From the NCBI GenBank assembly GCA_029907355.1, contig JARYLZ010000004.1, positions 5,007-69,006 on the forward strand: a stretch of DNA of 64,000 nucleotides, read 5' to 3'. Positions within the stretch are counted from its first letter, which is position 1. Each line of letters starts with the position of its first letter. The notes beneath the pieces were generated by a model, which worked only from the letters and a program-made list of their open reading frames with translations, did not search any database and was not told where the DNA came from. Positions 29,756 through 47,828 of the stretch are shown piece by piece. The stretch comes from Bacteroidota bacterium (GTDB lineage: Bacteria; Bacteroidota; Ignavibacteria; SZUA-365). The translations under genes and the position numbers were made by a program.

Positions 29756-30895
29756 TTATTTCATACTCTTTCTAAATGATTCCCGAGATATATGCTGTAC
29801 ATGCTCGTGAATGATTTCCAGAGTTTTTTCTGCCGCAATCGCCCAGTCGAAAGAATTTGCCCACTCTCTTGCGTTTACACTCATTTTTCTTCTGAGATCA
29901 GCATCATCAAGGAGAATTCTCATTGCTGACGCAAGAGACTCGATATTCCCATATGGATAAAGAATACCTGTTACATTGTTTTTCACGGAATCCCGTAGTC
30001 CAGGGACATCCGCCGCGATGACGGGTACCCCGCATGCATTCGCCTCTATGACAGTCAAACCCCAACCTTCTTTGGATGAAGGCTGAACGGCAAAACGCAT
30101 TTTGTGGAGTAAAGGGGCTTTCTTCTTTTCATCGATGAAACCATGAAAATGAACTTGATCTCGAAGATCGAGCTTCTTTGTGACATTCTCTAACCTCGTT
30201 CGATCATCACCATCGCCGATAATATCTAGGGTGAGTTCGGGGTAATCTTTTCGAAGAAGGGAACACGCTTCAAGGAGATGATCAATTGATTTATACCTTT
30301 TCAAACGCCCGAAATAGCAAATACGGTATGGTTCATGCTCATCATTGAGAGAAGGGTAGTAGATTTCTTTATTGACACAGTAATTGATAATGGTAACCTG
30401 GTCACGCCGGAATCCCCACTCAGTATATTCACGGTAAGTACTGGGCGAACCAACGATGAAAGGGACATTTCGATAAACGGGTTTAATGAGTCTCTCAAAA
30501 AGAAAGATATAAAATGCAAATGGAAAAATTGCCTCGAGAAAAATACTTCGACCGAACAGATGATGGGTTACGGCAATGATCGGCTCGCGCACGAATAGAG
30601 GGGTGAAAAAAGGTATTTTGTTGATATCGTCAATAACGACGTCGAAATGTTCTTTCCGAAATTTCAATAAATATCGGATAGGAACGAGATAATTAAAGAG
30701 AAATCTTCCGCCTTGACGGATAATTCGAATACCGTTGCGCAATTCTTCTCGTGACGAACCCCTGTATCGATGACAGAAGAGTGTGACATCATGTCCGCGG
30801 CGTGCGATGCGTTCGAAAACCTCGTGGAGGTGAACCTCTGCACCGCCGGCTAATGGATTCGTTATATCCTGCCAGTTGAGAACGAGAATTTTCAT
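29756..30895 (-). CDS. glycosyltransferase family 4
   Basis: N-terminal 'GGAEVH' and a C-terminal GT-B 'E..G...IEA.A.G.PV' motif. Confidence 0.8.
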   Translation of the reverse strand: MKILVLNWQDITNPLAGGAEVHLHEVFERIARRGHDVTLFCHRYRGSSREELRNGIRIIRQGGRFLFNYLVPIRYLLKFRKEHFDVVIDDINKIPFFTPLFVREPIIAVTHHLFGRSIFLEAIFPFAFYIFLFERLIKPVYRNVPFIVGSPSTYREYTEWGFRRDQVTIINYCVNKEIYYPSLNDEHEPYRICYFGRLKRYKSIDHLLEACSLLRKDYPELTLDIIGDGDDRTRLENVTKKLDLRDQVHFHGFIDEKKKAPLLHKMRFAVQPSSKEGWGLTVIEANACGVPVIAADVPGLRDSVKNNVTGILYPYGNIESLASAMRILLDDADLRRKMSVNAREWANSFDWAIAAEKTLEIIHEHVQHISRESFRKSMK

Positions 30896-30912
30896 GTAAA
30901 GTACGAACAGCT

Positions 30913-31713
30913 TTATACAGAATTTATTTTCACCGTATCCTGTCGAACTTTTTCAGCAATTACACCAATCGAAAGTGCTGTGTGAAGCTGAAAAGAGGTC
31001 CCTTCTAAACGCTTTCTGAGACGTGACCGAAACAAAGCGAGAGATTTAATGAGAACAGGATACATGGGGAGGCGTATCCCCAGTCGAAGCAATACCTCGC
31101 GCGTTGCACGGTAAAAAAAACTCGGGTACATCCATTCACCGTATGCTGCTCGGAATACTAACCCAAGAGATTCCAGGATTCGTACCAACTCGTTGATGGA
31201 GAATTCGCGTTCCCAGCCTGCAAACCAGGCGTTGAGAGGGATCAATAGGTGTTTGATAAGAGTGTAGACATGCCAACGCTGTGGCACATCGACGAGAAGC
31301 AACCCTCCATCTTTCAATACACGGATATTTTCTTCAAGAATGCGGCGAGAATCGTCGAGTCTGAAATGTTCGAGTAGACCTTGGTGGAAAACCACGTCAA
31401 ATGTCCTGTCCTTAAAAGGCAATCGAAATGCATCACCGCCAATGATCGTGATATCGACACCCTCTGGTTTAAGTGATGACATTAACCGCAAAGCATGGAA
31501 CGCGTAATCGAGAAGGAACAATTCCGCTCCATCTTTCGCCATGAAAAACGTGTCTCTTCCTGTTCCAGCACCGACTTCAAGGATTCGTGAACCTTTCAAA
31601 GGACGGATTGAAGAAAGGTGCTTCCTGATGCGATCCGTGTTCGGGTATACCTCACGCGGGTCGGACTTTGTTTTCCAAAAATTTTCCCAGTTCTGTTTTG
31701 TCGACTGCTTCAT
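30913..31713 (-). CDS. class I SAM-dependent methyltransferase
   Basis: Motif I 'ILEVGAGTGRD'. Length 266 aa. Confidence 0.75.
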   Translation of the reverse strand: MKQSTKQNWENFWKTKSDPREVYPNTDRIRKHLSSIRPLKGSRILEVGAGTGRDTFFMAKDGAELFLLDYAFHALRLMSSLKPEGVDITIIGGDAFRLPFKDRTFDVVFHQGLLEHFRLDDSRRILEENIRVLKDGGLLLVDVPQRWHVYTLIKHLLIPLNAWFAGWEREFSINELVRILESLGLVFRAAYGEWMYPSFFYRATREVLLRLGIRLPMYPVLIKSLALFRSRLRKRLEGTSFQLHTALSIGVIAEKVRQDTVKINSV

Positions 31714-31845
31714 TCGTCAATATCGGCGAAAATGCATCTTCCGATAATATATATTATGTAAAGTATGATTTTTTACTCATTGTACACCGTTTTTCATATT
31801 CCCTCTCGTAAATGTACGCAATCCTTATGCTGCGTTCGATGCTAC

Positions 31846-32640
31846 CTACCACTCACGCAATCGTTTCGGGATACCTTCCAATGGGAGTGAAACCTGATAG
31901 AATTCTCGTGTAACCCTTTGCCAATACTCTCCCGTGATCTTTCCTCTTCCCAGCACAGCACAATACGCAAGACCGGTACGTTTCAAACCTTCGTTCGCTT
32001 CGAACGGATCGATGACGATTGCACCATTCGGTGGGATTCGGTATTTATCGCGTGAAAGCTGCTTCCCTCGATCAAGGTAAAAAGTCACTGCAACCGTGAC
32101 TGAGCTGTCACTTTCGGGATTTGAGAGAATCAGACGCGCTTGAACGTCGGGATCGGCAACAAAATGTTGGCACAATAAAGCTTCCGCGCCTTCGCCGTCA
32201 GCCACCGGAAGCGCAGTGTTGAAGGGTCTTTCCTTCTCCTGTCGATGGAACTGCCAGTATTGTGCGGCCACGTTCCCGCCGTCAGAAATAATTCGGATTG
32301 TTCCTTGGAATATTTTGCCAAGGAGACGTGCCGACGGGTCGTAATTTACTTTACCGAATATAGGAAGGAAATATGCTTCCTCATCAAGGAGCGTTCCCGA
32401 TGTATCATAAACAAGGACGTTGACGACTGCGCCGCTTCCCTCAACGTCTGTGATGACAAGATGGTTCTCAAAGTTTTGGGGGTCCGAAACGAAGTAATTC
32501 AGCACGAGTTGATCCCCAACTCGCAAACTTCTTCGTTCTTGCTCCTCTCCTCCGATCTGGGCAAGTGTGGCGCCGTGCAAAAAGATGCCCCAAAGAACAG
32601 CGGTGAAAGAAGCCGTTCTGATGCTCGGGAGGAAATTCAC
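31846..32640 (-). CDS. secreted hypothetical protein, tandem paralog B, with an internal two-fold repeat
   Basis: Signal peptide present. Shares with the upstream paralog the pattern 'F.SDP......HhVh.DV.G.G..h.h..h...G.L.......L..FGK.NY.P' and the terminal 'GKITGEYWQ'. Confidence 0.5.
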   Translation of the reverse strand: MNFLPSIRTASFTAVLWGIFLHGATLAQIGGEEQERRSLRVGDQLVLNYFVSDPQNFENHLVITDVEGSGAVVNVLVYDTSGTLLDEEAYFLPIFGKVNYDPSARLLGKIFQGTIRIISDGGNVAAQYWQFHRQEKERPFNTALPVADGEGAEALLCQHFVADPDVQARLILSNPESDSSVTVAVTFYLDRGKQLSRDKYRIPPNGAIVIDPFEANEGLKRTGLAYCAVLGRGKITGEYWQRVTREFYQVSLPLEGIPKRLREW

Positions 32641-33410
32641 CGAATCTTTGTCACGCCTTCAAGAGGTAAAGCGAGGCGGTATTTTTCAATTTGTGAAGAT
32701 TGCCAATACTCGCCTGTGATTTTACCGGGTCCGACGACAACGATATATGCCGTCCCGGTCATTTTCAGTCCCTTCGTTACCTTGTAGGGGTTGATTCGCA
32801 CGATCCCGTTCGGCTGAATGATGAACTTTTCGGTAGCTACCAGCCCCCCGTCGTCCGAGTACATCTTTACATTGATAGTCACAGGCCGCATATCCTCTGC
32901 ATTGGCCACGACAATGGTCGCCTCGATAGATTTATCCGATACGAAATGCTGACAGACGAGTTTGTCGTACCCCTCGCCTGCCGACGCAGGAACGGCGATG
33001 TTCATATACCCGTTCTTCGGGGTTGTGTACATCTCCCAGTACTGGCCGATCAAGTTCCCGCCGTCGCTTTCGATACGAACCGTTCCCTGGAACTTCGGGT
33101 TCTGGTTGTACCCATGCTGGTAGGCGTTGAGATACGTCAGAGGATTGTAATTCAATTTCCCGAATGCTTGGAGGGTCTCATAGCGTTCATAGACGAGGCG
33201 TCCATCATCGCTGAAAATTGAGATACGAATGTTCGGTCCGACACCGTCGACGTCGCTGACGACGACGTGTGTCTGGATTTGCTCGGGATCGGACGCGAAG
33301 TTGCTGATGATCAATTTACTTCCCGTCTGTGCGTGTGAAGGCATCAGCCCGGAACACACGGCGAACGTAATGGCAATCGCAGCCACGGTCGTGTTGCGCG
33401 CTTTCAGCAT
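32637..33410 (-). CDS. secreted hypothetical protein, tandem paralog A, with an internal two-fold repeat
   Basis: Start taken at 'MLKARNTTVAAIAITFAVCSGLMPSHAQ' (signal peptide), with AGGAGG 11 nt upstream. Each half ends in '..GEYW'. Paralogous to 31846..32640. Confidence 0.5.
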   Translation of the reverse strand: MLKARNTTVAAIAITFAVCSGLMPSHAQTGSKLIISNFASDPEQIQTHVVVSDVDGVGPNIRISIFSDDGRLVYERYETLQAFGKLNYNPLTYLNAYQHGYNQNPKFQGTVRIESDGGNLIGQYWEMYTTPKNGYMNIAVPASAGEGYDKLVCQHFVSDKSIEATIVVANAEDMRPVTINVKMYSDDGGLVATEKFIIQPNGIVRINPYKVTKGLKMTGTAYIVVVGPGKITGEYWQSSQIEKYRLALPLEGVTKIR

Positions 33411-34249
33411 TGAGATAGTCCTCCTGGGAGATGTTGTAAAACGATACGATGCGGAGCAAGAAAACGTTGTACCCACGCGCGGTAGGTCTGCACAGGGAGT
33501 TCGAGAAAAGCTTCCGCGTACTGTGCCGTTCGCTCGAAGGTTATGGCGCGATACGCATTCAACCCCAAAATATGGTGCCCGTAATCGAGCGACGCAAGTT
33601 GGCTTACGTACATCGCAGTCGCCTTACGTTTCGTTGCGATGTGCTCGCTGATATCAATGACGATGTTGGCCGGAAGAGGTGTCCAGACCTCGAATGCCCG
33701 GACCAGACAGTTGTCCAAGCCGACCATCCCGCATGCAGAGGCGAAAGCGATATTGACCCGTCGGTGATCTTCATGGTTATCGAATATCGATGGAAGATAC
33801 AAAAGACGGGGTTGTTTCTCAACGAGTACCTTCGCCAGCAAATCACAAGCGCATTTCGACGCGAGTTCCGCCGGCGCGAGATCTAGATATCGAACACTCC
33901 GAACGCCGAGAGCGTCCATCGCCTGTCGAAATTCCGCTAAGCGCGTTCGCCGTGTTTCTTCGTCCGTTATCCACTCCTGGCGGATACTCCCAGCGTTGTT
34001 GGAACACAGGACAACAGTGAGTTGATCCCCATGGGCGACGTGCAGAGCGATAGTCCCTCCCACCCCGAACGTCTCATCATCGGCATGGGGAGAGAGGACG
34101 ACCACACTCCCCTCCCCTTCGTATGGAAAAAGTGCCTGCCTCGGATATACGGTGAGATTCTGATTGATGACGAGTTCGAGATAGTTTCTCGCGCGCCCTA
34201 CGAGACGTTTTCGGGAAAACCGATTGGCCATGCGATCCAAAATTTTCAT
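33404..34249 (-). CDS. PIG-L/LmbE-family N-acetylglucosaminyl deacetylase
   Basis: 'VVVLSPHADDETFGVGGTI' zinc-binding signature. Confidence 0.75.
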   Translation of the reverse strand: MKILDRMANRFSRKRLVGRARNYLELVINQNLTVYPRQALFPYEGEGSVVVLSPHADDETFGVGGTIALHVAHGDQLTVVLCSNNAGSIRQEWITDEETRRTRLAEFRQAMDALGVRSVRYLDLAPAELASKCACDLLAKVLVEKQPRLLYLPSIFDNHEDHRRVNIAFASACGMVGLDNCLVRAFEVWTPLPANIVIDISEHIATKRKATAMYVSQLASLDYGHHILGLNAYRAITFERTAQYAEAFLELPVQTYRAWVQRFLAPHRIVLQHLPGGLSQC

Positions 34250-34800
34250 TCTCTTTCCTTAGGGAGTTTCCCTTTTGAAAAAATTGTTCGTGTACCCATC
34301 CGAAGAACAGTAATTTTACCGGTGATCGTATACCCTGCCTTCATAATGCCGCGAATCGAAGGGAGATTGCCTTTTTCTGCGTAAATCCAGGTTCGTGTAC
34401 ACGCCAGGTTCATATCATCCGCCCAGTTTATCCATTCGAGAGCTGCAGGGTAGTACCCTCTCCCCCGGTACAATGGAGCAGTGACACAATCATACACGCA
34501 AAGGTTCCCTTCCGGTATAATCCACTTTCGGTCGATTTCATCGATGTGGAGTTCGTTTCCAGTCACCCAGCAAAGAAAGACGACGCGTTCACCGTTGTTC
34601 CCCCAAACTGCGCAGTGACCGTCGCGAAAGCGACGCCTATACTCATCGTGATAGGGGAAATCGCTCATCGCGAGCCATGGGAACTCTGACGGGACGACGG
34701 TCGATGTGAAAGAGACATCGGGCGACGTGCGGGGAGGTTCTCCCGTTCTCGTCCGCCGAGAGAAAAATATCAGTGTTGCAAGATTCACCCCATGACACAT
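34246..34800 (-). CDS. GNAT-family N-acetyltransferase
   Basis: Motif A-like 'VTAPLYRGRGYYPAAL'. Confidence 0.5.
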   Translation of the reverse strand: MCHGVNLATLIFFSRRTRTGEPPRTSPDVSFTSTVVPSEFPWLAMSDFPYHDEYRRRFRDGHCAVWGNNGERVVFLCWVTGNELHIDEIDRKWIIPEGNLCVYDCVTAPLYRGRGYYPAALEWINWADDMNLACTRTWIYAEKGNLPSIRGIMKAGYTITGKITVLRMGTRTIFSKGKLPKERE

Positions 34801-34808
34801 CGCTCGCT

Positions 34809-35972
34809 CTATTCTTCAGCGTATTGGGCTAGGTTGAAACGGGTCAGTCGTCGAACTACGTTTCGAAAACCCCGATACGACCGAGCGGAACAGTAACGAA
34901 GCGAGACCGATGGGGGCACGATATGCCAATGTCTGCTCCGTGTTTCCTCGGCACCAAGATCACGTTTATACCGTTCCGTCCCCCGTAAAAGGTCAAGAAC
35001 AATCTCTCCGCTTCGCTCTCCATTCGCTGAATCCCAATACGGTAAGCAATCCCAGAGGTACGATAGATTCCCGAACCCCGGTGTGAGGAAACTCGCGGCG
35101 GGATCCATTCCTGAGAGAAAGTAGGAGAACGTGTTTCCCGACCGAAAAAGTAAGATGGTGTGGATGACGTGATCCCCGAACCACACTTCGGAATGCACAA
35201 AAGCATCCCCACAGAGACGGGCAAGGAGGAGAAGGAAGTCGACGTTCCGCTGCTCAGAAAAAAACGATCTTTCCCTGAAACGCTGCCGATTCAAGGAAAT
35301 GAGCGTTGACAACGCCTTGTCCGTCGTTCCCTGGAACACACGAATTCCTAGACGATGGGAGATGCGATGCTCTTCCCAGTGTCTTAGAGCACGACGTATC
35401 GACGGGTGCACACACGAAGCATCGGCAGCGCGGCAATGTTTCCAGCATGCTAATCGCAAGCTACGAAAAACGGACCCCGGGTTCGTTTCGACCCGCCACT
35501 CCTTTGGGATCTCTGCCGATTCGATGCTGTCCCCGGTTCTTACCTCGTTGAACTGATACCATGCGTGAGGAAACACACTTCGGCAGAACGCGAACACGGC
35601 TTCCCACGCTTTATTGATGTACTGGTCAGGCGAGATAAGCTCGAAATAGGGAGTAAGCCCTTCACCGATCCAGTGGATATGTTCCCATGCCACGGACGTG
35701 CCGATGCGTCTTCTCTGGATGAAGAAAGGGGCTGCGAAGAGAATGTCATCCCCCTCTGTTCCCGTCAGCAAGCATAATTCGCGCTGCGGATTCCCCTCAC
35801 CGAACGATTCCCACCAGGCAGCAATCCATTCCCAACGTTGGAAAAAGGTCGCCCTGGATAATCGCCCGCTCGCATAGATCTCCCTCCACCATCTCTTCAG
35901 GCGTTCGTCGTGGAAATCCGTTCGTTCGATTTTCACGTGCCGCCTCTCCAACCGACGATCCGGGCGGGACAC
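34809..35972 (-). CDS. FemAB/CelD-like (BioF2-like) acyl/aminoacyl-transferase family protein
   Basis: About 390 aa with the GNAT_acetyltr_2-type architecture that is commonly placed in glycan loci. Confidence 0.45.
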   Translation of the reverse strand: MSRPDRRLERRHVKIERTDFHDERLKRWWREIYASGRLSRATFFQRWEWIAAWWESFGEGNPQRELCLLTGTEGDDILFAAPFFIQRRRIGTSVAWEHIHWIGEGLTPYFELISPDQYINKAWEAVFAFCRSVFPHAWYQFNEVRTGDSIESAEIPKEWRVETNPGSVFRSLRLACWKHCRAADASCVHPSIRRALRHWEEHRISHRLGIRVFQGTTDKALSTLISLNRQRFRERSFFSEQRNVDFLLLLARLCGDAFVHSEVWFGDHVIHTILLFRSGNTFSYFLSGMDPAASFLTPGFGNLSYLWDCLPYWDSANGERSGEIVLDLLRGTERYKRDLGAEETRSRHWHIVPPSVSLRYCSARSYRGFRNVVRRLTRFNLAQYAEE

Positions 35973-36502
35973 CCGACAGCGATGGCACGGGGGGGGATAT
36001 CATGCGTGACAGTTGTGTTCGCTCCGATCACTGCGCCATCGCCGATGGTCACGCCGGCAAGAACGACACTCATCGTCCCGATCCATACGTCCTTTCCGAT
36101 ACAGATGGGACGCTTTACCCCGCCCTGCTCCCGAATAGGGATATCCGTGCTCTTGAACGTGTGATGGGCATCGATGATCGAGACGAAACCCGCGATGAGG
36201 GTATCCTTTCCGATCCGCACAGACCCTGAAACGGTACAGTGTTGCGAGATGAAAACGTTTTCCCCGATATCCATTTCATCTTTGCACTCGACGATCAACC
36301 AGCTGTCCTGCAGGATTTGTACACCGGCACCGATTTGGATTCTCCCTCCCTCATGCACATCAATGTGTACACGCCTTCCGAAAGAAACCGAGGGGTGGAT
36401 TTCATGTCCGGCACGGCGCAATCTTCCGACAACCGCTTTCCGTTCAAGACTCTCCCAGGAGACGAATACACGTTGAAGGAAAGATGGGACCCAACGGAAC
36501 AT
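35933..36502 (-). CDS. hexapeptide-repeat (LbH) sugar O-acetyltransferase
   Basis: Repeated [LIV]G..... hexads 'IGKDVWIGTMSVVLAGVTIGDGAVIGANTTV'. Confidence 0.75.
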   Translation of the reverse strand: MFRWVPSFLQRVFVSWESLERKAVVGRLRRAGHEIHPSVSFGRRVHIDVHEGGRIQIGAGVQILQDSWLIVECKDEMDIGENVFISQHCTVSGSVRIGKDTLIAGFVSIIDAHHTFKSTDIPIREQGGVKRPICIGKDVWIGTMSVVLAGVTIGDGAVIGANTTVTHDIPPRAIAVGCPARIVGWRGGT

Positions 36503-38955: not shown

Positions 38956-40011
38956 TCACGCCATGGCATGGAGATAGGCGGCAATATGTTCACCGGCAAC
39001 CCTCTCCCACGAGAGGTTTCGGACGAAGGCAGATGCACGACGGATACGTTCTTTCGTGGCAAGAATATCGGGTTTCACGAGAAGGTTCGTCAAGAAATTC
39101 AGGAGTTCCTCTCCGCTGGTAAAGTAGAATGTATGTTCCCTGATAGCGGGGAAAGATTCGAAATAGCGTCTCTTGATTTCCGACAAGGCAGGGACGATAA
39201 CCGGCCGGCCGGCTCGGAAGGCATCGAGAATTCCGAGGTAACCCGTCCCAATGACATAGTTAGCGGCGGCATAGAAGGGACCGATTTCCGTGGTTGGGGG
39301 ATGACGTGTAATGTTCAGGGATCCGCCAGCCAGAGCCTTGAGGTCATGAACCAGTTGTCCACAACCCACGAGAACGAGATGCACCGGCACACCAGCAACG
39401 TTTGCGGCCTTCGCGAGACATTCGGTGGTCTCCTTGATGCCAGTGTCTTCCGCCCATCGCCCGATAAACACGTAAGTATGATGATGCTCCCATGGAGGGG
39501 CCGTGTTGTCATGGATCGGCGCTCCGAGGTACACATGGTCAATCCGCTGGCCGTACAAGGCACGAACGTACTCCCCTACACCGAACGTAACATTCATGCA
39601 CCGGGCGGTGAAACGTCGAAGCACCACATCAACATAGCGCACGGGCCACGAATCGAAGCCATGAAACGTTGTAGCGAATACGGGGTGGCGAAAGAAAAGA
39701 CGAAATGGGAGAAACCAGTGGAAGAAGGTGCCATAATCATGAAAATGGAGAACGTCCGCTGCCGCAAAAACCCGCCGATGCTTCCAGATCCAGAACCAGC
39801 GCAATAAACGGGTGAAAGGCCGAACTCTTCTGACCCCGAACCGGAGGACGCGTACACCGTCTGGAGCATTCAGTTCCTTGCCGTTGTTCGACTCCGTGAT
39901 GATGGTGACCTCATGACCGCCTTTCGTCATTTCCGACGCAAGCGCATGGACGGCCAACTCCACCCCTCCGATGTCCGGGAGATAGCGATCTGTCAGGAAA
40001 ACGATCTGCAT
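38956..40011 (-). CDS. glycosyltransferase (GT4-like)
   Basis: 'MQIVFLTDRYLPDIGGVELAVHAL' N-terminal GT-B fold. Confidence 0.7.
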   Translation of the reverse strand: MQIVFLTDRYLPDIGGVELAVHALASEMTKGGHEVTIITESNNGKELNAPDGVRVLRFGVRRVRPFTRLLRWFWIWKHRRVFAAADVLHFHDYGTFFHWFLPFRLFFRHPVFATTFHGFDSWPVRYVDVVLRRFTARCMNVTFGVGEYVRALYGQRIDHVYLGAPIHDNTAPPWEHHHTYVFIGRWAEDTGIKETTECLAKAANVAGVPVHLVLVGCGQLVHDLKALAGGSLNITRHPPTTEIGPFYAAANYVIGTGYLGILDAFRAGRPVIVPALSEIKRRYFESFPAIREHTFYFTSGEELLNFLTNLLVKPDILATKERIRRASAFVRNLSWERVAGEHIAAYLHAMA

Positions 40012-41227: not shown

Positions 41228-41235
41228 TGGAACTC

Positions 41236-42282
41236 CTATTCCATAATGAATGGGATCACGCGATCTTTACGCCCCCAAGTAATCCGGAGCAAGTACATCC
41301 CGCGTGGCATTGCCGGGCGTTCCGTTGCGAGGAAAACGGGAACGAGGTGTCGACCCGGTACAGCTGCCATGTACTCGAACACCTTCAAGGAACGACCGAA
41401 CTCGTCATAAACCTCCAGTTTCAGACATCCAGCCTCCGTGCTCGAAAAATCAACGAGGAGATACCGGGATTCTGATCTGCCGAATGGAATGGGGTAGACT
41501 TCCGGATCGGTCAAACCATGAGTCGGGTTTTCCCCGAAGTATTCCGCTTTCATAATGATCTCTACAAGCCGTTCTGCGATAGCAAGATGGCCTTGAGCCG
41601 TCGGATGGATACCATCCCTCCCGATGCAGGACGAATCAGTAAAAGAGTAAGGGATTTCGAGAAATCGTCCCGAGCATTCCATCGCCGTTCGGCAGATCGC
41701 TTCCTGGTAACGTGATAGATGGAAACCCGTACCGCCATACCGTTCGTAGAGGGAAGGCGGCGAGAAAAAGGAGAAACGATACTCGTTCAGGGGCGGAAGC
41801 CCGAGAAAAATCGGTACAGCACCGATCCCCTGTATCTTCCGGCATATGAGTCTGAGATTCGAGATAAAACGTTCAAGCGGCACACGGGGTGAGGTTGTGA
41901 ATCCGTGTATGTATAGATCATTCGTACCAAAAGAGACAACTACGATAGAGGGGCCAAAAGTCAGCACATCTCTGTCGATACGCAGGAGAGCATCATCCGT
42001 CGTCTCCCCTGCTCGGCCGAGGTTCCGGACCGTATAACAATGACCTTCTGCACGAAACATCGAGTCGCAACGTGAGGGATAGGCGAGATCCGGCCTGAGA
42101 ACTCCATCGATCCACCCCTCTGTGATTGAATCCCCGAAAAAAAGAATGAGTCCCTGCGGGTCGCTGCGAGGTCCCGTTCCCGCCGATATCAGGACCGGCG
42201 AAAAGAGAAGAGCGAAGATGAAGCGGTTAACAGGGAAAGGCACCCTCGGCTGCAAGGATGCAAACTGTCGTTTCATGGGCAA
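41236..42282 (-). CDS. SGNH/GDSL esterase with a T9SS C-terminal sorting domain
   Basis: 'LILFFGDSITEGW' block I. The C-terminal 'LKLEVYDEFGRSLKVFE...GMYLLRIT...' resembles a Por-secretion tail. Confidence 0.65.
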   Translation of the reverse strand: MPMKRQFASLQPRVPFPVNRFIFALLFSPVLISAGTGPRSDPQGLILFFGDSITEGWIDGVLRPDLAYPSRCDSMFRAEGHCYTVRNLGRAGETTDDALLRIDRDVLTFGPSIVVVSFGTNDLYIHGFTTSPRVPLERFISNLRLICRKIQGIGAVPIFLGLPPLNEYRFSFFSPPSLYERYGGTGFHLSRYQEAICRTAMECSGRFLEIPYSFTDSSCIGRDGIHPTAQGHLAIAERLVEIIMKAEYFGENPTHGLTDPEVYPIPFGRSESRYLLVDFSSTEAGCLKLEVYDEFGRSLKVFEYMAAVPGRHLVPVFLATERPAMPRGMYLLRITWGRKDRVIPFIME

Positions 42283-42348: not shown

Positions 42349-45300
42349 TCAACCGGTCTCCAGTCTTTCCGGTGTTGGAGCCTGATGTTTCTCATGCATT
42401 AGCGCGATATGATCATGCATACCGATCGGCAAATGGAAACGATCCGTACCCTCAAGCGAGTGCTTCAACCGTTCAGCATATTCGTGCATTCTTCGTTCGA
42501 ACTCCTCCCGCGTGCGCTCCCTCTCGAGGAAAATCTGTTGATATCTTGCGAGGAAGTATCCGATCGTCTCGACACGGATTTTGATGCTCCCGACCGGTTT
42601 GTTCTCATCGATGTCTTTAAATGAAAAATACGGTGTATGAGAACACTCGATGATTTCCTGGACAAGAGAGTAAATCGGTGCATCGTGACCGCATCGAAAA
42701 CTGGAAAGCTCGAGAGCGACGAGATTCGGATGGCGTGCGACAAACTTCGCCGCCCACACCTTGCGCGAGGTGTTCTCACTGTATGAATTTTTCCAGACAT
42801 CGGAAATATCCATTGGGTGTGAAATTCTCCCCGCCCGAATATCCGGACCGAAAAGCTTTTCGAGGATGTCATGGTCTGTAGGGAGCGAGTCCTGAGAAAG
42901 AACCGGATAGCCGAGTTTCCTGAACTCATTAGGGATCCCGTGGTTGACACCGGGGTCGGCGTGATAGGGACGTCCGAGAACGACGACACCGATCCGCCTG
43001 TTATGTTCGAGTTCCTCGAGAATCTGTCTTCCCTGGGCGCGGAGAGTCTCTTGGAATCGTCGTAAGGCGGCGTAGCCTTCTTCCACCGCGCGGAGGTTCT
43101 CATCACGCCTGAGTTTCAACCGTCGCCCGAAAGCGGTGTACAACTGTTCAGCTGCAAGAGCGGGATCATTCAACCGAATGAAGGGGTTGATATATTCCAC
43201 GCCCGCTTTTCGGAACAGATCCTCTTCCTTGATGTATGCGGCTTTGACGGACTCAGGTGTCCCTGTCGCCGTCGGGCAGGCTTTCGATCCGACAACATGG
43301 AAGAGATCCGTCGGAAAATCATCGATGATGGGGAAGAAAAGCCACTCGAAATGGGTCAACCGGAGTTTCTTCGTAAGGAGATTGTGAACATGTGCGAGCG
43401 CCACTTTCGAGGGGAAACAGGGATCGATGCTCCCACGCTTCACCCCTTCTTTATAGAGTTCTTCCGATGTGAAATCCGAAAAGACGAAGTTCTGAAACGG
43501 CACACCGAGGCTTTCGAAATATGCGGTGAAGAAAGGCATTGTGGAGTATAGGTTCAGGACTCGTGGCACGGCTATTCGAATAGAGGAACGAAGGTGTGAA
43601 ACACCACCATTCCCCACCCGGAACATCCGAGAGAAGAGCCCCTTTGAATTGTTGGAATCGGTGTTTGCTTTCGCTGGCGACCATGCAAGTTGTGCTTGAG
43701 TTTCGAGAGTGCTCGGAAATTGTTTTTTCACATCGGATATATTTTTCGCAATCATGCGCATATCGTCGATATCTTCTACCGTTCCTTTCTCGCAGCTCGC
43801 AATGATGAGTCGGCTTGCACCGGGTTCTAAGGGTATCTTCGAATGCCGATGCCGGAGACGTTCTTCTTCCGATTCGAAACGGGCAGAGCGCAGTAATTCA
43901 GGTCCTGATTTATATGGGAAGATATTCGATTTCTCTGTGAATTGTTCGTTGGTTTGAACATCGATGAAAGTCCTCATACACTTGTTTTTACAGAAATTGC
44001 AGCGCGTTTCCTCGTTCCGCAATGTTCTGAACCGGATTCGTGCAACGGCGTCGAGTCCGATAAAGGTTGTAGATCTGCCTTCTGAGTAAAGACGAGATGC
44101 TTCGACGGCACAACCAATAGCTCCTGCTTCACCGGTATGTTCATGGACGATAATGCGTGGTTCCATGTTCTTGGATCGGAAACGCGATCGAATAAAGTCC
44201 ACCTGTGCTTTGACAGCTGCCAGATTATGTTGCGTTCCGCCTTGAAGGACGAAGGTTTTCCCGAGTTTTGTCAGATTTGGAATTTGAGAAACATATAGCC
44301 AGATATTTTTCGGAAGAACGATGGCAAGACCTGCAAGTATCTCTTGCGGGGACCACCCTTTTCTTTGAAAATCGACTATATCGGACTGAAGAAAAACGGC
44401 ACATCCATAACCGAATTCAGGTGCGACTTTCGCTTGAAAAGCAATATCGGCGTATTCATCTACAGAGAACCCGAATGATTCAGCTGTACTTTGTAAAAAA
44501 TATCCATTTCCAGCGGAACACTGTGTATTTAACTTGAAATCAACGACTCTATTATCTTTTAAAATAATGAGTTTGATATCTTGACCTCCCACATCACATA
44601 TCACATCAACATTCTTATAAAAATGGAGTGCGGCCTGTGTATGTGCGACGGTTTCGACGAGAGCGATATCGGCACCGATGGAATTCTTCAAAATATCTTT
44701 CGCGTACCCGGTGGTACCGACCGCAAGAATATCGAGATCGGCCCCCTGTTCGAGAACCTGTCGATGAAGTTTCTTGATGATATCTTTGGTATCTTCTATC
44801 GGATTCCCATACGACAATTGGTAAGCTTTGAATGCGACACGCCCTTCCGTGTCGAGGAGAACTCCTTTCGTCGACGTCGACCCACCATCTATCCCGAGGA
44901 AAGCCTGGAAAACTGAGCCAGGTGTCAATTTTCTCGGCATGAAGGGTTTGACGGAAAATTCCTCTCTAAATGCTTCGAGTTCCTTTTCGTCCCGCACGAG
45001 AGGGGGAAGAGCTTTTCTGAGCTTATCGCGATGGTTACCTGTTGAGAGGATGCGTTCCAGTTCATTGATGCCACGATACGGCACAGGTATTTCATGGTTT
45101 TCCCGACCGAATTCCACCGCACCAATGGCTGCGTAATACTGACCTGACTCGGGAACGATGATGCAGTCTTCTGGGCATCTGCCTTCAGGGAGAGGGAATT
45201 CTCTTTCCTCCCAGAGATTTTTGATATTCCAACGCCAGCATTCCACCATTCCCCGGATGAAGGTGTTCGGTCCGCCAAGAAGCAAAACATCCGGTCTGAG

Positions 45301-45957
45301 TGTATGGCCGCGTGTCAAGACGGAGAGATTCTGCAAAACAATCGACTCAAAGAGAGACGCGATGAGTTCATCCGCCGGGACACCTTGCTTTTGCAAACCA
45401 TTGATATCGGTTTCAGCAAAAACGCCGCATTTGCCAGCAACAGGATGAATTTTCACTCCATTATATCGAGCCTCGCTCAGAGCCCCAGGGGGAAGGCGAA
45501 GTTTGGCGTTTATCTTGTCGATCACAGCTCCGGTCCCGCCTGCGCATTTATCGTTCATGGAAAAGATTTTCTTCTTTCTTCTCGTTATCGGGTCTTCTTT
45601 GAAGATGATGATTTTGGCGTCTTGTCCGCCGAGTTCGATCACCGACCCGGCCGTCGGCCATAATTTTTCGACCGCGACCGTGACGGCATTCACTTCTTGA
45701 ACAAATTGTGCGCCAATGAATGGAACAATAGAGTTTCCACCCGATCCTGTGACATAGACCGCGAAGTGTTTGGGGGAATACGAAAACTCCACATGAATCG
45801 CCCGTAAGAATTCCAGCACTTTTTCCTGTTGCCGTGTTTCGTGACGTTGATAATCGCGCCAGAGTATTTCCCCTGTCCGGTTCTCCACAACGACCGCCTT
45901 GACGGTCGTACTGCCGACATCGAGTCCAATGGAATACATGGTTGTCGCGTCGATCAT
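42349..45957 (-). CDS. fused CoA-substrate-specific enzyme activase (two BadF/BadG/BcrA/BcrD-type ATPase domains) plus DUF2229/HgdB-like domain
   Basis: Two ASKHA ATPase modules, 'YSIGLDVGSTTVKAVV' and 'FLGIDGGSTSTKGVLL'. A Cys cluster 'CNFCKNKC'. A C-terminal 'VVLGRPYH' DUF2229-type domain. The start is taken at 'MIDATT' (45957), forming an ATGA overlap with the upstream stop; track ORF 42349..45999 extends this with 14 extra codons. Confidence 0.75.
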   Translation of the reverse strand: MIDATTMYSIGLDVGSTTVKAVVVENRTGEILWRDYQRHETRQQEKVLEFLRAIHVEFSYSPKHFAVYVTGSGGNSIVPFIGAQFVQEVNAVTVAVEKLWPTAGSVIELGGQDAKIIIFKEDPITRRKKKIFSMNDKCAGGTGAVIDKINAKLRLPPGALSEARYNGVKIHPVAGKCGVFAETDINGLQKQGVPADELIASLFESIVLQNLSVLTRGHTLRPDVLLLGGPNTFIRGMVECWRWNIKNLWEEREFPLPEGRCPEDCIIVPESGQYYAAIGAVEFGRENHEIPVPYRGINELERILSTGNHRDKLRKALPPLVRDEKELEAFREEFSVKPFMPRKLTPGSVFQAFLGIDGGSTSTKGVLLDTEGRVAFKAYQLSYGNPIEDTKDIIKKLHRQVLEQGADLDILAVGTTGYAKDILKNSIGADIALVETVAHTQAALHFYKNVDVICDVGGQDIKLIILKDNRVVDFKLNTQCSAGNGYFLQSTAESFGFSVDEYADIAFQAKVAPEFGYGCAVFLQSDIVDFQRKGWSPQEILAGLAIVLPKNIWLYVSQIPNLTKLGKTFVLQGGTQHNLAAVKAQVDFIRSRFRSKNMEPRIIVHEHTGEAGAIGCAVEASRLYSEGRSTTFIGLDAVARIRFRTLRNEETRCNFCKNKCMRTFIDVQTNEQFTEKSNIFPYKSGPELLRSARFESEEERLRHRHSKIPLEPGASRLIIASCEKGTVEDIDDMRMIAKNISDVKKQFPSTLETQAQLAWSPAKANTDSNNSKGLFSRMFRVGNGGVSHLRSSIRIAVPRVLNLYSTMPFFTAYFESLGVPFQNFVFSDFTSEELYKEGVKRGSIDPCFPSKVALAHVHNLLTKKLRLTHFEWLFFPIIDDFPTDLFHVVGSKACPTATGTPESVKAAYIKEEDLFRKAGVEYINPFIRLNDPALAAEQLYTAFGRRLKLRRDENLRAVEEGYAALRRFQETLRAQGRQILEELEHNRRIGVVVLGRPYHADPGVNHGIPNEFRKLGYPVLSQDSLPTDHDILEKLFGPDIRAGRISHPMDISDVWKNSYSENTSRKVWAAKFVARHPNLVALELSSFRCGHDAPIYSLVQEIIECSHTPYFSFKDIDENKPVGSIKIRVETIGYFLARYQQIFLERERTREEFERRMHEYAERLKHSLEGTDRFHLPIGMHDHIALMHEKHQAPTPERLETG

Positions 45958-47828
45958 ACACCGTCCTTCACACCTAGCCTCTTCTCTTTCCTCGCGCATG
46001 AGAGAGCGAGACGTGGTGCAATTCCTACTAAGCCGTTTCTCCTCGGGAGGGGCTGGAACGGATCACGGAAGCTCTTATCCGCTTTTACGATATGTCGTAA
46101 ATCGTCTTCCGACATTCCGAGGCTGTGTAGGGTTTGTCGCATCTCCTCGCGGGCAACAGTCTTAGCTTCGCCGAGCGCCATCTGCACCCTGCTGTGGGCA
46201 TTGATCTCGCCTTCCCCCGATGTTTCGATTGGGAGAAAAAGAATATCGTGGAAATGGGTGGTAACCGCAGACTGGACACCGTCCGATTGCGTACTCGGCA
46301 TGCATCCGAATGGTTTCAAAGATAAAACCATGTGACAGAGTCTCTTTCGGGTAAAGTATATGGTCTTTGCTACCTCGAGATGTCCTTCCCCGCCTTCGAT
46401 TCTCGTGTGAAAATACGGGTGAGCGAGCTTCTGCAATTCCCCTTGGGGCGTAAGGGGAAATGGGACAAAGTCCAGAGCGCGACGCATGCGATTGTATTCC
46501 CGGGTCAAGAGAAATTCGGCAATACGGTACACCGTGATTTTCATCATCGAGGAAAGATGCGCCCTGGTGATCGTGTAAAGACGTGAGGGGAATTTCGTTT
46601 TCACCCAACGGCTTTTCTTTCGCATGTCATGCGCTTCCTGCCGTGCCAGGTAGAGAAGATAGAGAAGCCAGTTCGTAACCGGATCGACGAGCACCTGAGC
46701 CCCTTCACTCTCGAGGAAGCGAAACATCTCGAAATTCCCATCCCCCTCTGTTGTCTGCGCCCAGAATTCGCCCGTCAATTTCACGACCGGTCGTACCCGT
46801 GTCCGGTCGACCTCGATACGCGCAAAACGTTCGCGGCACCAGCGCATTCCCTTGACAAGTCTTCTCCCGAAAAGGTACTCACCCCATCTCAACGCCGAGA
46901 TCACGAAATCGACCACATGGGGAACATCTTGCGGGCGTTGTATGACGCGAAGCGATGCTTTTCGTTTCCAAGAAAACAATATCGAGGCCATATGTTCGAT
47001 ACATTCACGGAGGACCTCATCCGTCGCCCCGTGGTCTACTTCGTAAGGACGAATTTGATAGGCGGTGTCATTGAGCACATCGGCAATCATGATGGCGTGA
47101 AGGATGCCGAGCGTGAAATCCCGGTTAATGACCAATCCTGCGTCGACGCTCGACTGCTCGAGACCACCCGTTTGTTGAAGAATAAGGACACGGAAACCTT
47201 CGTACCCGGAATTGCGGAGGGCAAGGCGATACTCGGCTTCGTACATACCAAAACGGCAAGGACCGCATGCTCCCGCCGTGAAGAAGACATATTGATCGAT
47301 GATTTCCTGTTTGCCCATCCCCTTCGCTTCCAGGGAGTTCAAGTAGTCGATAAGATTCCCGATTGTGAAATACGCGGGATTGCAGTGTCCGTTATTGCAG
47401 TATTCACGCCCTGTCTGGTACGACTTGATAGTGGGCGTGGGAAGGAATTCGGCACGGTATCCAAGTCCCTGGAGCACAGCTTGGATCAACCGTTCATGCT
47501 TCCATGTCAATCCGCCGAAGAGCACCGTTGTAAAAGGACGCTGAGCACGGGTGAAGGGGCGTTCGACAGGCCGTATTGCATGCGTCACATCCAGGTTTGC
47601 TAGACCGAGTTCCCGCTTCAGACGATGGCACTCTTTCGCGATGAGAACATCGAAGTGGCTGGGCTCTTCTTTCTTTGTGCGGTGGAACCCGTTCCCATTG
47701 ACGCGATGCCCTGACGACCGTTTATGCGAGGGAGGATCAATCGGATACATACGGGTTTCCAAGCATATTTTTTCAATAAGATTCTCTACCGATTCGGGGA
47801 AGGGTCTCTGAAACGCGTGTCGATACAT
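45954..47828 (-). CDS. 2-hydroxyacyl-CoA dehydratase family (HgdB/FldC-like, 'activase-related') protein
   Basis: 'GACGPCRFG' and 'LKPFGCMP' Cys motifs typical of the dehydratase component family. Length 624 aa. Confidence 0.6.
   Translation of the reverse strand: MYRHAFQRPFPESVENLIEKICLETRMYPIDPPSHKRSSGHRVNGNGFHRTKKEEPSHFDVLIAKECHRLKRELGLANLDVTHAIRPVERPFTRAQRPFTTVLFGGLTWKHERLIQAVLQGLGYRAEFLPTPTIKSYQTGREYCNNGHCNPAYFTIGNLIDYLNSLEAKGMGKQEIIDQYVFFTAGACGPCRFGMYEAEYRLALRNSGYEGFRVLILQQTGGLEQSSVDAGLVINRDFTLGILHAIMIADVLNDTAYQIRPYEVDHGATDEVLRECIEHMASILFSWKRKASLRVIQRPQDVPHVVDFVISALRWGEYLFGRRLVKGMRWCRERFARIEVDRTRVRPVVKLTGEFWAQTTEGDGNFEMFRFLESEGAQVLVDPVTNWLLYLLYLARQEAHDMRKKSRWVKTKFPSRLYTITRAHLSSMMKITVYRIAEFLLTREYNRMRRALDFVPFPLTPQGELQKLAHPYFHTRIEGGEGHLEVAKTIYFTRKRLCHMVLSLKPFGCMPSTQSDGVQSAVTTHFHDILFLPIETSGEGEINAHSRVQMALGEAKTVAREEMRQTLHSLGMSEDDLRHIVKADKSFRDPFQPLPRRNGLVGIAPRLALSCARKEKRLGVKDGV

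Follow-up and report, generated by a model that had tools for sequence, protein, structure and literature searches.

A lineage-specific gene array places a predicted split ether-lipid reductase next to genes for a putative exported glycoconjugate

In a 64,000-nt stretch of a Bacteroidota genome (contig JARYLZ010000004.1; hereafter the window), fifteen minus-strand genes form an array headed by a two-gene enzyme of predicted PlsA/PlsR-Ger type and continued by glycan genes. The reading that we prefer, with a probability of about one half, is that of a lineage-specific envelope operon of separable modules, in which ether-lipid formation goes together with an amino-sugar glycoconjugate at the cell surface. 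The gene arrangement itself is genuine and is conserved within one uncultured Bacteroidota lineage; the pair and the glycan genes may serve a common product.

Layout and boundaries of the array

A preliminary description of the window had reported an 18-kb co-directional array with short gaps or overlaps, and the ORF list agrees: the minus-strand run is uninterrupted from 47828 to 29756. It holds 15 ORFs, not the 17 counted at first, and the functions named in that description also total 15. The features are listed below.

47975..48009, minus strand: terminator-like hairpin of intrinsic type (12-bp stem, 5-nt loop, T-run), which terminates the upstream choice-of-anchor-D gene
45954..47828, minus strand: g1, predicted Red2 (PlsR-equivalent), the catalytic subunit in a reductase of PlsA/Ger type (longest ORF 624 aa)
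42349..45957, minus strand: g2, Act1-Act2-Red1, with two BcrAD_BadFG ATPase domains and DUF2229 (1202 aa; Pfam)
41236..42276, minus strand: g3, exported SGNH/GDSL esterase with a T9SS-sorting-like C-terminal tail (Pfam; signal peptide)
40034..41227, minus strand: g4, PIG-L/LmbE-family deacetylase with an N-terminal signal/anchor segment (Pfam E 5e-13)
38956..40011, minus strand: g5, cytoplasmic GT4 glycosyltransferase (Pfam)
37792..38934, minus strand: g6, cytoplasmic GT4 (Glycos_transf_1) glycosyltransferase (Pfam)
36507..37805, minus strand: g7, MOP/Wzx-type flippase, about 10-12 membrane spans (Pfam Polysacc_synt_3; hydropathy)
35933..36502, minus strand: g8, hexapeptide-repeat (LbH) O-acetyltransferase-like protein (Pfam, NCBIfam)
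34809..35972, minus strand: g9, Acetyltransf_6 (FemAB/VimA-like) acyl- or aminoacyl-transferase (Pfam E 1.5e-11; start codon uncertain)
34246..34800, minus strand: g10, small GNAT-like protein (sub-threshold Pfam match)
33404..34249, minus strand: g11, cytoplasmic PIG-L/LmbE deacetylase (Pfam E 6.9e-22)
32637..33410, minus strand: g12, exported protein built from two beta-sandwich repeats of TM1070/ASRT-like type (NCBI places the start at M23, giving 257 aa)
31846..32640, minus strand: g13, exported g12 paralog (62% identical in L093, L095 and L096)
31714..31845, minus strand: AT-rich gap of 132 nt that closes the conserved core g1-g13 (sequence)
30913..31713, minus strand: g14, class I SAM methyltransferase; accessory and less well conserved (Pfam)
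29756..30895, minus strand: g15, GT4 glycosyltransferase, last gene of the array (Pfam; generic GT4 relatives in PDB)

The spacing is likewise as first described, with ATGA overlaps, small gaps and the single 132-nt AT-rich exception. ATGA overlaps join g1 to g2 (45957-45954, read in the sequence; the g2 start ATG overlaps the g1 stop codon), g10 to g11 and g12 to g13. Apart from the 132-nt gap between g13 and g14, which is possibly an internal promoter, and a 66-nt gap between g2 and g3 (42283-42348; 72 nt if the g3 ATG is at 42276), the intergenic gaps measure 3-22 nt, and from g1 to g13 every gap is at most 72 nt. The hairpin at 48009-47975 has a dG of -29.9 kcal/mol (z -6.3), and none of 200 shuffled sequences folded equally well; it sets the array off, at its 5' end, from the upstream choice-of-anchor-D gene. 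No terminator-like site was found in the g2/g3 gap. Beyond g15 lies a convergent riboflavin synthase gene. As had been stated, Pfam and NCBIfam profile searches find no Wzy, Wzz or Wza among the 15 ORFs.

Identity of the g1-g2 pair

The first two genes had been taken for a CoA-thioester dehydratase with its activase, and their place among radical enzymes of the BCR/HAD superfamily was supported. Pfam recovers the double BcrAD_BadFG activase in g2, whose ATPase domains match HgdC, HadI and DCCP-R; the DUF2229 domain had been overlooked. As for g1, its "dehydratase-family" label is supported by a predicted fold matching BCR/HAD catalytic subunits (HadB/HadC, BzdN, MbdN/O, DCCP) but not by profiles, since the 624-aa protein matches no Pfam or NCBIfam model. 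Translation of g1 may begin at M1 (47828) or at M28 (47747), and the 544-aa NCBI call cuts off conserved residues. The g2 homolog in L001 also has 1202 aa.

The CoA-thioester assignment was not upheld. First, g2 aligns with Listeria PlsA over residues 1-667 (E 2e-102) and 678-981 (E 4e-38) and g1 over residues 1000-1263, so that the pair is colinear along its whole length with this fused 1484-aa protein, which is encoded by the sole DUF2229 gene of its chromosome. Secondly, C149, C191 and C509 of g1 are conserved in the Red2 region of Listeria PlsA, and the Brevibacillus partner protein has all four cysteines. Thirdly, a Pfam search finds the HGD-D domain in neither g1 nor g2. The full-length PlsA colinearity, DUF2229 and the fused double activase speak against a 2-hydroxyacyl-CoA dehydratase with its activase. 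Together, g1 and g2 are predicted from these alignments to encode a complete split PlsA/PlsR-Ger-type enzyme of the BCR/HAD superfamily. This family reduces glycerolipid esters to ethers, and from the colinearity with PlsA the substrate is expected to be a glycerolipid ester rather than a CoA thioester. Because identity to the PlsA of a plasmalogen-producing species is only 25-32%, the substrate could differ.

Comparison with known systems places the pair closest to the lipid-reducing branch. The anaerobic plasmalogen synthase PlsA/PlsR is encoded by two genes in Clostridium perfringens and is fused in Listeria, Enterococcus, Lactococcus and Bifidobacterium. It shares with g1-g2 two BcrAD_BadFG activase domains, DUF2229 (Red1), a second reductase domain (Red2) and, in Listeria, three Cys motifs of Red2. 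However, the Red2 gene here precedes the activase-Red1 gene instead of following it; g1, with about 600 aa, exceeds the Listeria Red2 region (about 485 aa) and carries a fourth invariant Cys; identity is no higher than 25-32%; and the pair, whose activity is predicted, heads a glycan array and is not free-standing. Glycerol ester reductase (Ger), known as Tmari_0479 in Thermotoga maritima and from Desulfatibacillum alkenivorans, is, like PlsA, defined in the literature by BBD together with a second reductase part. All alkyl-ether producers have the BBD core in common, and BBD-only "architecture 2" homologs were reported in Acidobacteriota and other phyla. The pair has the BBD core and occurs in those same phyla. 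Ger, in contrast, consists of one polypeptide, in which small HGD-D/DUF2229 fragments come after the BBD core, whereas the second reductase part is here a protein of its own, encoded upstream and picked up by none of the HMMs. No mention of such a protein was found in the publications consulted. The (R)-2-hydroxyacyl-CoA dehydratases HgdAB/HadBC (activator HgdC/HadI), the benzoyl-CoA reductases and the double-cubane protein DCCP belong to the same superfamily and work by ATP-driven electron injection into Fe-S centres, as is predicted for the pair; they differ in that g1-g2 lacks the HGD-D signature and a CoA-metabolism context, has its double activase fused to a catalytic domain, and is homologous over its whole length to the lipid-reducing branch.

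Downstream genes and their predicted product

Most family names given earlier to g3-g15 were reproduced by HMM searches: two PIG-L/LmbE deacetylases, three GT4 enzymes, the Acetyltransf_6 (FemAB-like) protein, the hexapeptide (LbH) transferase, the MOP/Wzx flippase and the methyltransferase. The two secreted paralogs are also real, g12 and g13 being 41% identical (E 7e-66) and both carrying signal peptides. The GNAT call for g10 has a sub-threshold Pfam match (E 0.002, 18.8 bits against a cut-off of 20.7); the gene is conserved in related loci at 31-38% identity. For the "T9SS-sorted GDSL esterase", g3, Pfam supports GDSL, while the T9SS part is weakly supported: the tail matches TIGR04183 below cut-off (E 0.011, 15.6 bits, cut-off 23), and the tail of the neighbouring cargo protein scores the same. 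The g7 protein falls below the cut-off of the MOP flippase model NF007773. No close relative of solved structure was found for g5, and g9 matches neither NCBIfam (including TIGR03019) nor PDB. The nearest solved relatives of g11 are diacetylchitobiose deacetylases.

It can be seen that g3-g13 combine cytoplasmic sugar-building and sugar-modifying enzymes with a multi-span MOP flippase and four exported proteins (g3, g4, g12 and g13, all with signal peptides). In g4 the hydrophobic segment covers residues 5-24, and its predicted site of action is therefore outside the cytoplasm. The flippase and the four exported proteins indicate that the array product leaves the cytoplasm, which agrees with a glycoconjugate exported to the cell surface and speaks against a thiol that stays in the cytoplasm.

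The preliminary description had seen Bsh/Msh-like logic in these genes. Spelled out, this reading would have a 2-hydroxyacyl-CoA-dehydratase-type enzyme, acting on a CoA thioester by ketyl-radical chemistry, feed an unusual acyl group to a cytoplasmic low-molecular-weight-thiol or amino-sugar pathway of that type. Mycothiol and bacillithiol synthesis (MshA/B/C/D, BshA/B/C) do use the same GT4, PIG-L/LmbE and GNAT classes. However, the BshA, BshB, MshA and MshB models score only 54-96 bits against cut-offs of 182-462 (g11 with BshB1: 54 against 182), and the array has no BshC- or MshC-like gene for adding cysteine, no CoA-transferase and no 2-hydroxyacid dehydrogenase. With the missing HGD-D domain, the PlsA colinearity of the pair throughout and the exported proteins, the dehydratase and thiol-pathway reading is largely refuted, and we regard it as very improbable.

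A second alternative concerns the glycan half: a Vim-like "linking sugar" or surface-anchor pathway, in which a deacetylase frees an amino-sugar amine, g9 adds an amino acid and T9SS cargo is then attached to the flipped glycan; the ether-lipid pair would be only co-located or co-regulated. In Porphyromonas and Tannerella, VimA adds Ser or Gly after deacetylation; g9 belongs to the same Acetyltransf_6 family, the array has two deacetylases and GT4 enzymes, and a T9SS cargo gene lies directly upstream, with a T9SS-like tail on g3. The logic resembles that of the Wbp/Vim pathway in T9SS-bearing Bacteroidota, with N-deacetylation of an amino sugar, FemAB-like transfer and a GT4 step in this order. 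But VimE is a CE4 deacetylase, not PIG-L; WbpA/B/E/D genes are lacking from the array; g9 reaches none of the curated FemAB or PEP-CTERM models and does not hit TIGR03019; and the T9SS tail matches stay below cut-off. We consider this alternative unlikely.

Conservation of the linkage and its possible meaning

The neighbourhood search proposed earlier shows that the pair recurs beside the same glycan genes in relatives. Homologs of g4 (47-55% identity) are always preceded by g1-g2, in 6 of the 6 loci with upstream flank, and glycan genes stand at 7 of 87 g1-centred loci. The order g1-g13 is colinear in L088, L089, L093, L095 and L096 and partly so in L001, L002, L010, L038, L043, L066, L069 and L094. 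Thus g3-g13 trail the pair in fixed order in one Bacteroidota-related lineage, the only one (about 13 loci) with glycan genes downstream of the pair. In some relatives g6 is swapped for another gene of like size; g14 was seen in L095 only, about 1 kb past g13. As had been supposed, the coupling appears undescribed: a literature search found no paper on an HgdB/activase-type pair linked to glycan genes.

A weaker but serious contender is that the lineage ancestor acquired a chance neighbourhood of two or three independent modules (the pair of PlsAR/Ger type, a locus for a surface glycan, and g12/g13 as a periplasmic pair), which were inherited together, perhaps on one transcript yet with unrelated products (bulk membrane ether lipids and a conventional undecaprenyl-linked oligosaccharide). 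The pair is self-sufficient: g1 relatives occur in at least 592 species-level genomes, g2 follows g1 directly at 76 of the 77 loci whose flanks are long enough, and at 79 of the 87 species-level loci the neighbours are other than the glycan genes and vary by lineage. The two-gene module is old, autonomous and widespread. Since g12/g13-like genes form their own unit in other lineages, the array has a modular make-up; a small ORF of L002, c3, which accompanies the pair in other phyla, marks a module boundary between g2 and the glycan genes. The array-bearing loci also share upstream TolX, GDSL, PurL and BrkB genes, with PurL 71-76% identical (about 72%). They are therefore not independent observations, the conserved adjacency may reflect a gene order passed on by descent and not selection for coupling, and the evidence for functional coupling is moderate. 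A flippase and GT4 enzymes without a polymerase would also fit Bacteroidota-type oligosaccharide or protein O-glycosylation loci. Against mere juxtaposition, g2 and the glycan genes have stayed together at all of the roughly 13 loci, unbroken by insertion, inversion or loss, despite insertions just upstream of g1 (Band_7/NfeD, choice-of-anchor D); the modules adjoin with very short gaps and no terminator; and g5-g11 keep their order at identities down to 27-57%.

Under the envelope-operon reading, one promoter between the hairpin and g1 (about 47829-47974) would serve all array genes. ATP hydrolysis by the g2 ATPase domains would drive low-potential electrons into the Fe-S centres of Red1/Red2, which, in the manner of PlsA and Ger, would convert the sn-1 acyl ester of a glycerolipid into an alkenyl or alkyl ether. 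On the inner side of the membrane, the enzymes encoded downstream might build a short glycan of amino sugars on a lipid, by GlcNAc-type transfer and N-deacetylation, followed by re-acylation or aminoacylation and by O-acetylation and methylation. The flippase would carry this glycan outward, where the exported deacetylase and esterase could trim it. If the ether lipid from g1-g2 were the carrier, an ether-anchored amino-glycolipid would result; this functional link, the simplest one, is a conjecture. Profile and PDB searches found no signature in the GT4 or PIG-L sequences that distinguishes a glycerolipid from an undecaprenyl phosphate acceptor. The eukaryotic GPI-anchor core offers a parallel in logic only: the PIG-A GT4 enzyme transfers GlcNAc to a glycerolipid, PIG-L then removes the N-acetyl group, and acylation and flipping follow, so that families (GT4, PIG-L) and sequence of reactions on a membrane lipid are alike. 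The lipid part of GPI is in many cases an alkyl-acyl glycerol. Unlike GPI synthesis, the array shows no sign of an inositol-lipid acceptor, mannosyltransferases, ethanolamine-phosphate transfer or transamidase, and one of its PIG-L enzymes is exported.

Outside the array lineage, the pair adjoins lipid genes in Acidobacteriota and Ignavibacteria. A Tes/GDGT-MAS homolog (7TOL, E 2.7e-63) lies a few kb away in five Acidobacteriota loci, and DAG-kinase-family and MGDG-synthase-type genes are near the Brevibacillus pair. About 15 Ignavibacteria-type loci have two SQS_PSY genes and an amino oxidase gene directly upstream of the pair; these neighbours are HpnCDE-like.

Layout and gene families of the array

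An unbroken run of 15 minus-strand ORFs, numbered g1 to g15 in the order of transcription, extends from 47828 to 29756 in the ORF table of the window. The preliminary description had counted 17 genes here, and its own list of functions also sums to 15. What it said of the spacing, namely gaps of 66 nt or less or ATGA overlaps with one exception of 132 nt, was borne out by the ORF table and the sequence. ATGA overlaps are found at g1/g2 (read directly from the sequence as GGTGTATGATCG), g10/g11 and g12/g13; apart from the 66-nt and 132-nt gaps, the remaining intergenic gaps are 3-22 nt.

Features of the array and its upstream boundary
48009-47975, minus: 12-bp hairpin, then a T-run (folding: dG -29.9 kcal/mol, z -6.3)
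45954-47828, minus: g1, 624 aa
42349-45957, minus: g2, 1202 aa
42283-42348: g2/g3 gap, 66 nt
31714-31845: AT-rich gap, 132 nt

The hairpin and T-run sit 3' of the stop codon of a choice-of-anchor-D/T9SS-cargo gene, just upstream of g1, and therefore give the array a clean 5' boundary. The array is followed at its 3' end by a convergent riboflavin synthase gene. Rfam and tRNA scans detected no element inside the array. A sigma-70 promoter scan gave fewer matches than were obtained in shuffled sequences; the sigma-70 model is ill-suited to Bacteroidota and the scan was uninformative. It also overlooked the hairpin (48009-47981), which folding established. GC content is 0.45-0.48 over window positions 28001-32000, where g14, g15 and the 132-nt gap are located, against 0.52-0.57 in most of the window. 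Genes g14 and g15 fall outside the conserved core and are the least conserved array genes among relatives. Because of the low GC content and the poor conservation, the g14-g15 end may be a later addition to the array.

Families were assigned by Pfam and NCBIfam profile searches on the array ORFs.

Families of the array genes (all minus strand)
g2: double BcrAD_BadFG ATPase plus DUF2229
g3: GDSL esterase
g4, g11: PIG-L/LmbE deacetylases
g5, g6, g15: GT4 glycosyltransferases
g7: MOP/Wzx flippase
g8: hexapeptide acetyltransferase
g9: Acetyltransf_6 (FemAB-like)
g10: GNAT, sub-threshold match
g12, g13: no family assignment; paralogs (41% identity) with signal peptides
g14: methyltransferase

These searches confirmed the families named from the sequence alone (double ATPase, GDSL, two LmbE, three GT4, FemAB-like, LbH, flippase and methyltransferase); a GNAT match in g10 does exist, but it is sub-threshold. 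The 624-aa product of g1 matched nothing in Pfam or NCBIfam, 24 aligned members of its family had no Pfam match at E up to 1, and a PDB sequence search with g1 found nothing. Nor was paralogy detectable by BLASTP between g1 and the C-terminal half of g2. PDB searches with g5, g9, g11 and g15 returned no matches or generic ones only and did not identify the acceptor.

The g1-g2 pair and its relatives

The single polypeptide of g2 contains two BcrAD_BadFG (activase) stretches (PF01869, E 5.5e-77; TIGR00241 also marks two stretches), followed at residues 808-1039 by DUF2229 (PF09989, E 3.2e-50). The BBD core, defined as two activase domains and then a DUF2229 reduction domain (PMC13159169), is thus present. 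The predicted fold of g1 is of the HadB/DCCP type, i.e. a second reductase/dehydratase-like domain (Red2, the PlsR part) placed in the adjacent gene. The comparison was made with a Listeria monocytogenes chromosome that PLSDB wrongly lists as a plasmid and that has one DUF2229 gene. This 1484-aa B-B-D ORF is by architecture the fused PlsA form. Anaerobic activity has been reported for Listeria pls orthologs (PMC9702350), which may include this ORF. At 25-32% identity, the pair and the Listeria ORF are colinear. First, g2 aligns with Listeria residues 1-667 at 32% identity (E 2e-102) and with Listeria residues 678-981 at 28% (E 4e-38). Secondly, residues 86-393 of g1 align with Listeria residues 1000-1263 (25%, E 2e-21), directly after the part matched by g2. 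Three of the four invariant cysteines of g1 lie in the corresponding Listeria motifs (NNxxC, GxCR and PFxC). The alignments and the cysteine motifs argue that g1 and g2 together reconstitute an Act1-Act2-Red1-Red2 architecture (two activase ATPase domains, then the first and second reductase domains), the set-up described for plasmalogen synthase PlsA/PlsR and glycerol ester reductase Ger. Enzymes of this family turn an sn-1 acyl ester into a vinyl or alkyl ether, and g1-g2 would be expected to do likewise.

In PlsA/PlsR systems plsA comes first and plsR second, whereas in the array the Red2 gene (g1) comes first and is translationally coupled to g2. Brevibacillus laterosporus carries the same two genes, at 38-40% identity, in the PlsA-then-PlsR order. 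The pair belongs to a known kind, the PlsAR/Ger homologs, as a distinct split variant. Published surveys of Acidobacteriota and other phyla describe 'Ger architecture 2' homologs that consist of the BBD core and lack the second reductase part, and the published Ger/PlsA accounts examined do not mention a separate upstream Red2 partner. Our comparisons indicate that the missing part is supplied by an adjacent g1-type gene, a conserved gene of about 600 aa upstream that is invisible to HMMs. A very common gene pair labelled 'activator of 2-hydroxyglutaryl-CoA dehydratase' would accordingly move to the ether-lipid (PlsA/Ger) branch.

The NCBI start of g1 (544 aa, P0001, the deposited protein record) lies about 80 codons inside the longest ORF, omitting window positions 47588-47828. 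A segment at about residues 57-80 of g1 (ExxRLxxE) is conserved in the family alignment and absent from the 544-aa call; because the call drops it, the deposited start is probably too short.

The pair had been read earlier as a dehydratase and its activase acting on a CoA thioester. The catalytic-subunit fold of that reading stood, since g1 shares it with the (R)-2-hydroxyacyl-CoA dehydratases (HgdAB/HgdC, HadBC/HadI). The rest did not: a search for the HGD-D signature (PF06050) that allowed E values up to 1 found it neither in g1 or g2 nor in any of 24 members of the g1 family; HgdC/HadI systems have a stand-alone activator of about 260 aa, whereas the activase of the array is a fused double domain within g2; and neither a CoA-transferase nor a 2-hydroxyacid dehydrogenase occurs among the 15 ORFs or their flanks.

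In a scan of one genome per species, at least 592 genomes contained a g1 relative. The best 80 of these, at about 50% identity, came from Ignavibacteria, Bacteroidota, many Acidobacteriota, Dadabacteria, Poribacteria, Zixibacteria and Marinimicrobia. Of the 77 loci whose flank is long enough, 76 have g2 immediately downstream of g1. Beyond g2 no neighbour of g1 is universal, and the recurrent ones are lipid genes. A rough NJ tree of g1 supports only the grouping of contexts by taxon.

Recurrent neighbours of the pair in homologous loci (L numbers)
L003 6819-9919: two SQS_PSY genes plus amino oxidase, upstream of the pair; also in L004-L009, L013, L014, L018, L044, L050 and L052
L079 9196-11460: Tes/GDGT-MAS homolog
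L058 14682-16772: Tes/GDGT-MAS homolog
L027 10465-12552: Tes/GDGT-MAS homolog
L034 6356-8452, minus: Tes/GDGT-MAS homolog
L022 3384-5021: Tes/GDGT-MAS homolog
L002 15411-15692: c3 ORF (13 loci in all)
L085 15307-15600: c3 ORF
L030 15297-15608: c3 ORF

Loci of the Ignavibacteria type have two SQS_PSY genes and an amino oxidase gene, the HpnC/D/E layout of squalene synthesis, immediately upstream of the pair; downstream of the pair these same loci carry a PMT_2 (ArnT-like) gene in convergent orientation. In five Acidobacteriota loci a clear homolog of GDGT-MAS/Tes, the tetraether lipid synthase of archaea (7TOL, E 2.7e-63), is no more than a few kb away from the pair; in L079 it comes directly after g2, and it often has a second radical-SAM gene (cluster c37) beside it. 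These lipid neighbours fit the published idea that branched GDGTs in Solibacter are products of PlsAR and Tes homologs, and the pair together with Tes appears to be a candidate cluster for making branched GDGTs in Acidobacteriota. Directly after g2 in 13 loci we found an ORF of about 95 aa with no Pfam match (cluster c3). The loci bearing it belong to Acidobacteriota, Dadabacteria, Poribacteria and Marinimicrobia and include one array-bearing locus; tblastn detected no copy in the window. Possibly c3 encodes a third enzyme component. The pair being abundant in Acidobacteriota and sometimes beside tetraether-synthase homologs, a concrete gene set for the ether bonds of branched GDGTs can be put forward, consisting of the g1 and g2 homologs, Tes and possibly the c3 ORF. 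Branched GDGTs are widely used palaeoclimate markers.

The Brevibacillus pair has a split lanthipeptide dehydratase upstream (L101 94-3161) and, about 2.5 kb downstream (L101 11196-14205), a DAG-kinase-family gene, an MGDG-synthase-type glycosyltransferase and an alpha/beta-hydrolase. The PLSDB 'plasmid' records L100 (NZ_CP030101.1, 2.9 Mb) and L101 (NZ_CP011076.1, 1.38 Mb) are evidently chromosomes or chromids. With hardly any annotation (12 and 16 features), such megabase-sized records can mislead plasmid statistics, but here they were useful in supplying a Listeria PlsA sequence.

Pathway class of the glycan genes

Cell location was assigned from hydropathy and N-termini. The GT4s, g11, the acyltransferases and the methyltransferase are predicted to be cytoplasmic, g7 to be a multi-span membrane flippase, and g3, g4, g12 and g13 to be exported. 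An exported PIG-L deacetylase, as g4 appears to be, is unusual because MshB and BshB are cytoplasmic. The GDSL esterase g3 had been called T9SS-sorted. Its tail (41236-41500) does resemble a sorting domain, as does that of the choice-of-anchor-D protein (48064-51003), but each scores about 15.5 bits against the TIGR04183 cut-off of 23; sorting domains of the array lineage seem too divergent for this curated model.

The gene mix of the array had been likened to low-molecular-weight-thiol or modified amino-sugar pathways (Bsh/Msh-like logic), a reading in which a CoA-dehydratase would feed a thiol pathway. All four models tried scored far below their cut-offs (BshA 87.3 against 273.7 bits, MshA 95.9 against 462.5, BshB1 54.2 against 182.5, MshB 29.4 against 224), and no cysteine-adding enzyme (BshC/MshC) was matched among the 15 ORFs. 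The thiol pathway was rejected on these scores and on the predicted topology, with a flippase and four exported proteins. We regard the combined reading as very improbable and largely excluded. Of a Wzx/Wzy-type O-antigen or capsule set, only the flippase g7 was found among the 15 ORFs; they include no polymerase, chain-length regulator, exporter or initiating phosphoglycosyltransferase. The earlier statement that Wzy, Wzz and Wza are missing agrees with the Pfam/NCBIfam searches, which detected none. Because these components and a cysteine-adding enzyme are lacking among the 15 ORFs, the Bsh/Msh scores are low, and a flippase and exported proteins are present, the predicted product is a short, modified amino-sugar glycan, flipped across the membrane and then completed outside the cytoplasm, probably neither a cytoplasmic thiol nor a polymerised O-antigen.

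The nearest described logic is that of the Vim pathway, in which deacetylation is followed by FemAB-like aminoacyl transfer (VimA) and a GT4 step (VimF). The glycan half might make a Vim-like anchor glycan for T9SS cargo. However, VimE is a CE4 deacetylase and those of the array are PIG-L, the array has no Wbp genes, and g9 carries an Acetyltransf_6 domain and does not match TIGR03019. We consider this alternative unlikely. Vim membership of g9 and g11 was rejected on the deacetylase family and the missing Wbp genes, and the pathway was retained as an analogy.

Distant homologs of g12 (L102 6292-8153; L103 1590-3399) end in an OmpA-type peptidoglycan-binding domain. Each is paired with a g13-like neighbour in a separate two-gene unit beside a TP_methylase gene, far from glycan or PlsA-like genes.

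Linkage of the pair to the glycan genes

The coupling was tested both ways, from g1 loci and from g4 homologs. Glycan genes follow the pair in seven g1-centred loci (L001, L002, L010, L038, L043, L066 and L069), and every metagenomic g4 homolog with upstream flank is preceded by g1-g2. Genes g1-g13 are colinear in L088, L089, L093, L095 and L096, and g5-g11 have diverged to 27-57% identity in these loci. In related loci insertions were found just upstream of g1 and never inside the array, which argues for an operon. Against coupling, the array-bearing loci also share TolX, GDSL, PurL and BrkB genes upstream (PurL 71-76% identical). They form a single, broadly syntenic lineage and do not count as independent events; elsewhere, in 79 of 87 loci, unrelated neighbours stand beside the pair. 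Checked as the preliminary description had asked, the pair and the glycan genes do recur together in relatives, but within this one lineage. The linkage is lineage-specific, its functional meaning is conjectural, and we found no account of it in the searchable literature.

Our best reading, with a probability of about 0.5, is an envelope operon. By ATP-driven electron transfer, g1-g2 would turn the ester of a glycerolipid into an ether, and the products of g3-g13 would assemble an amino-sugar glycoconjugate, flip it and trim it. An ether-anchored glycolipid would be the simplest connection between the modules, a conjecture. The main rival is adjacency without a shared pathway. The single syntenic lineage and the unrelated neighbours elsewhere are consistent with it, the uninterrupted array is less so, and we hold it to be a serious though somewhat less probable explanation. 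If the modules are merely adjacent, this is an ordinary surface-glycan locus beside an ordinary lipid gene pair. If the array is one pathway, it would point to ether-anchored glycolipids in uncultured Bacteroidota, and we know of no earlier gene cluster in which an anaerobic route to ether lipids is joined to one for a surface amino-sugar glycoconjugate.

The boldest reading, which we think improbable, is a bacterial GPI-like system. Here g1-g2 would make an alk(en)yl-glycerolipid, a GT4 would add GlcNAc and a PIG-L enzyme would de-N-acetylate it. The FemAB-like and GNAT enzymes would then attach an amino-acyl group bearing a free amine. Exposed by the flippase, the resulting ether-anchored amino-glycolipid might serve as membrane anchor for T9SS cargo or for the g12/g13 proteins.

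Just past the convergent riboflavin genes, on the strand opposite to the array, lies a gene for a NAGPA-family phosphodiester glycosidase (26576-27880); sugars in phosphodiester linkage on a surface glycan are a possible substrate.
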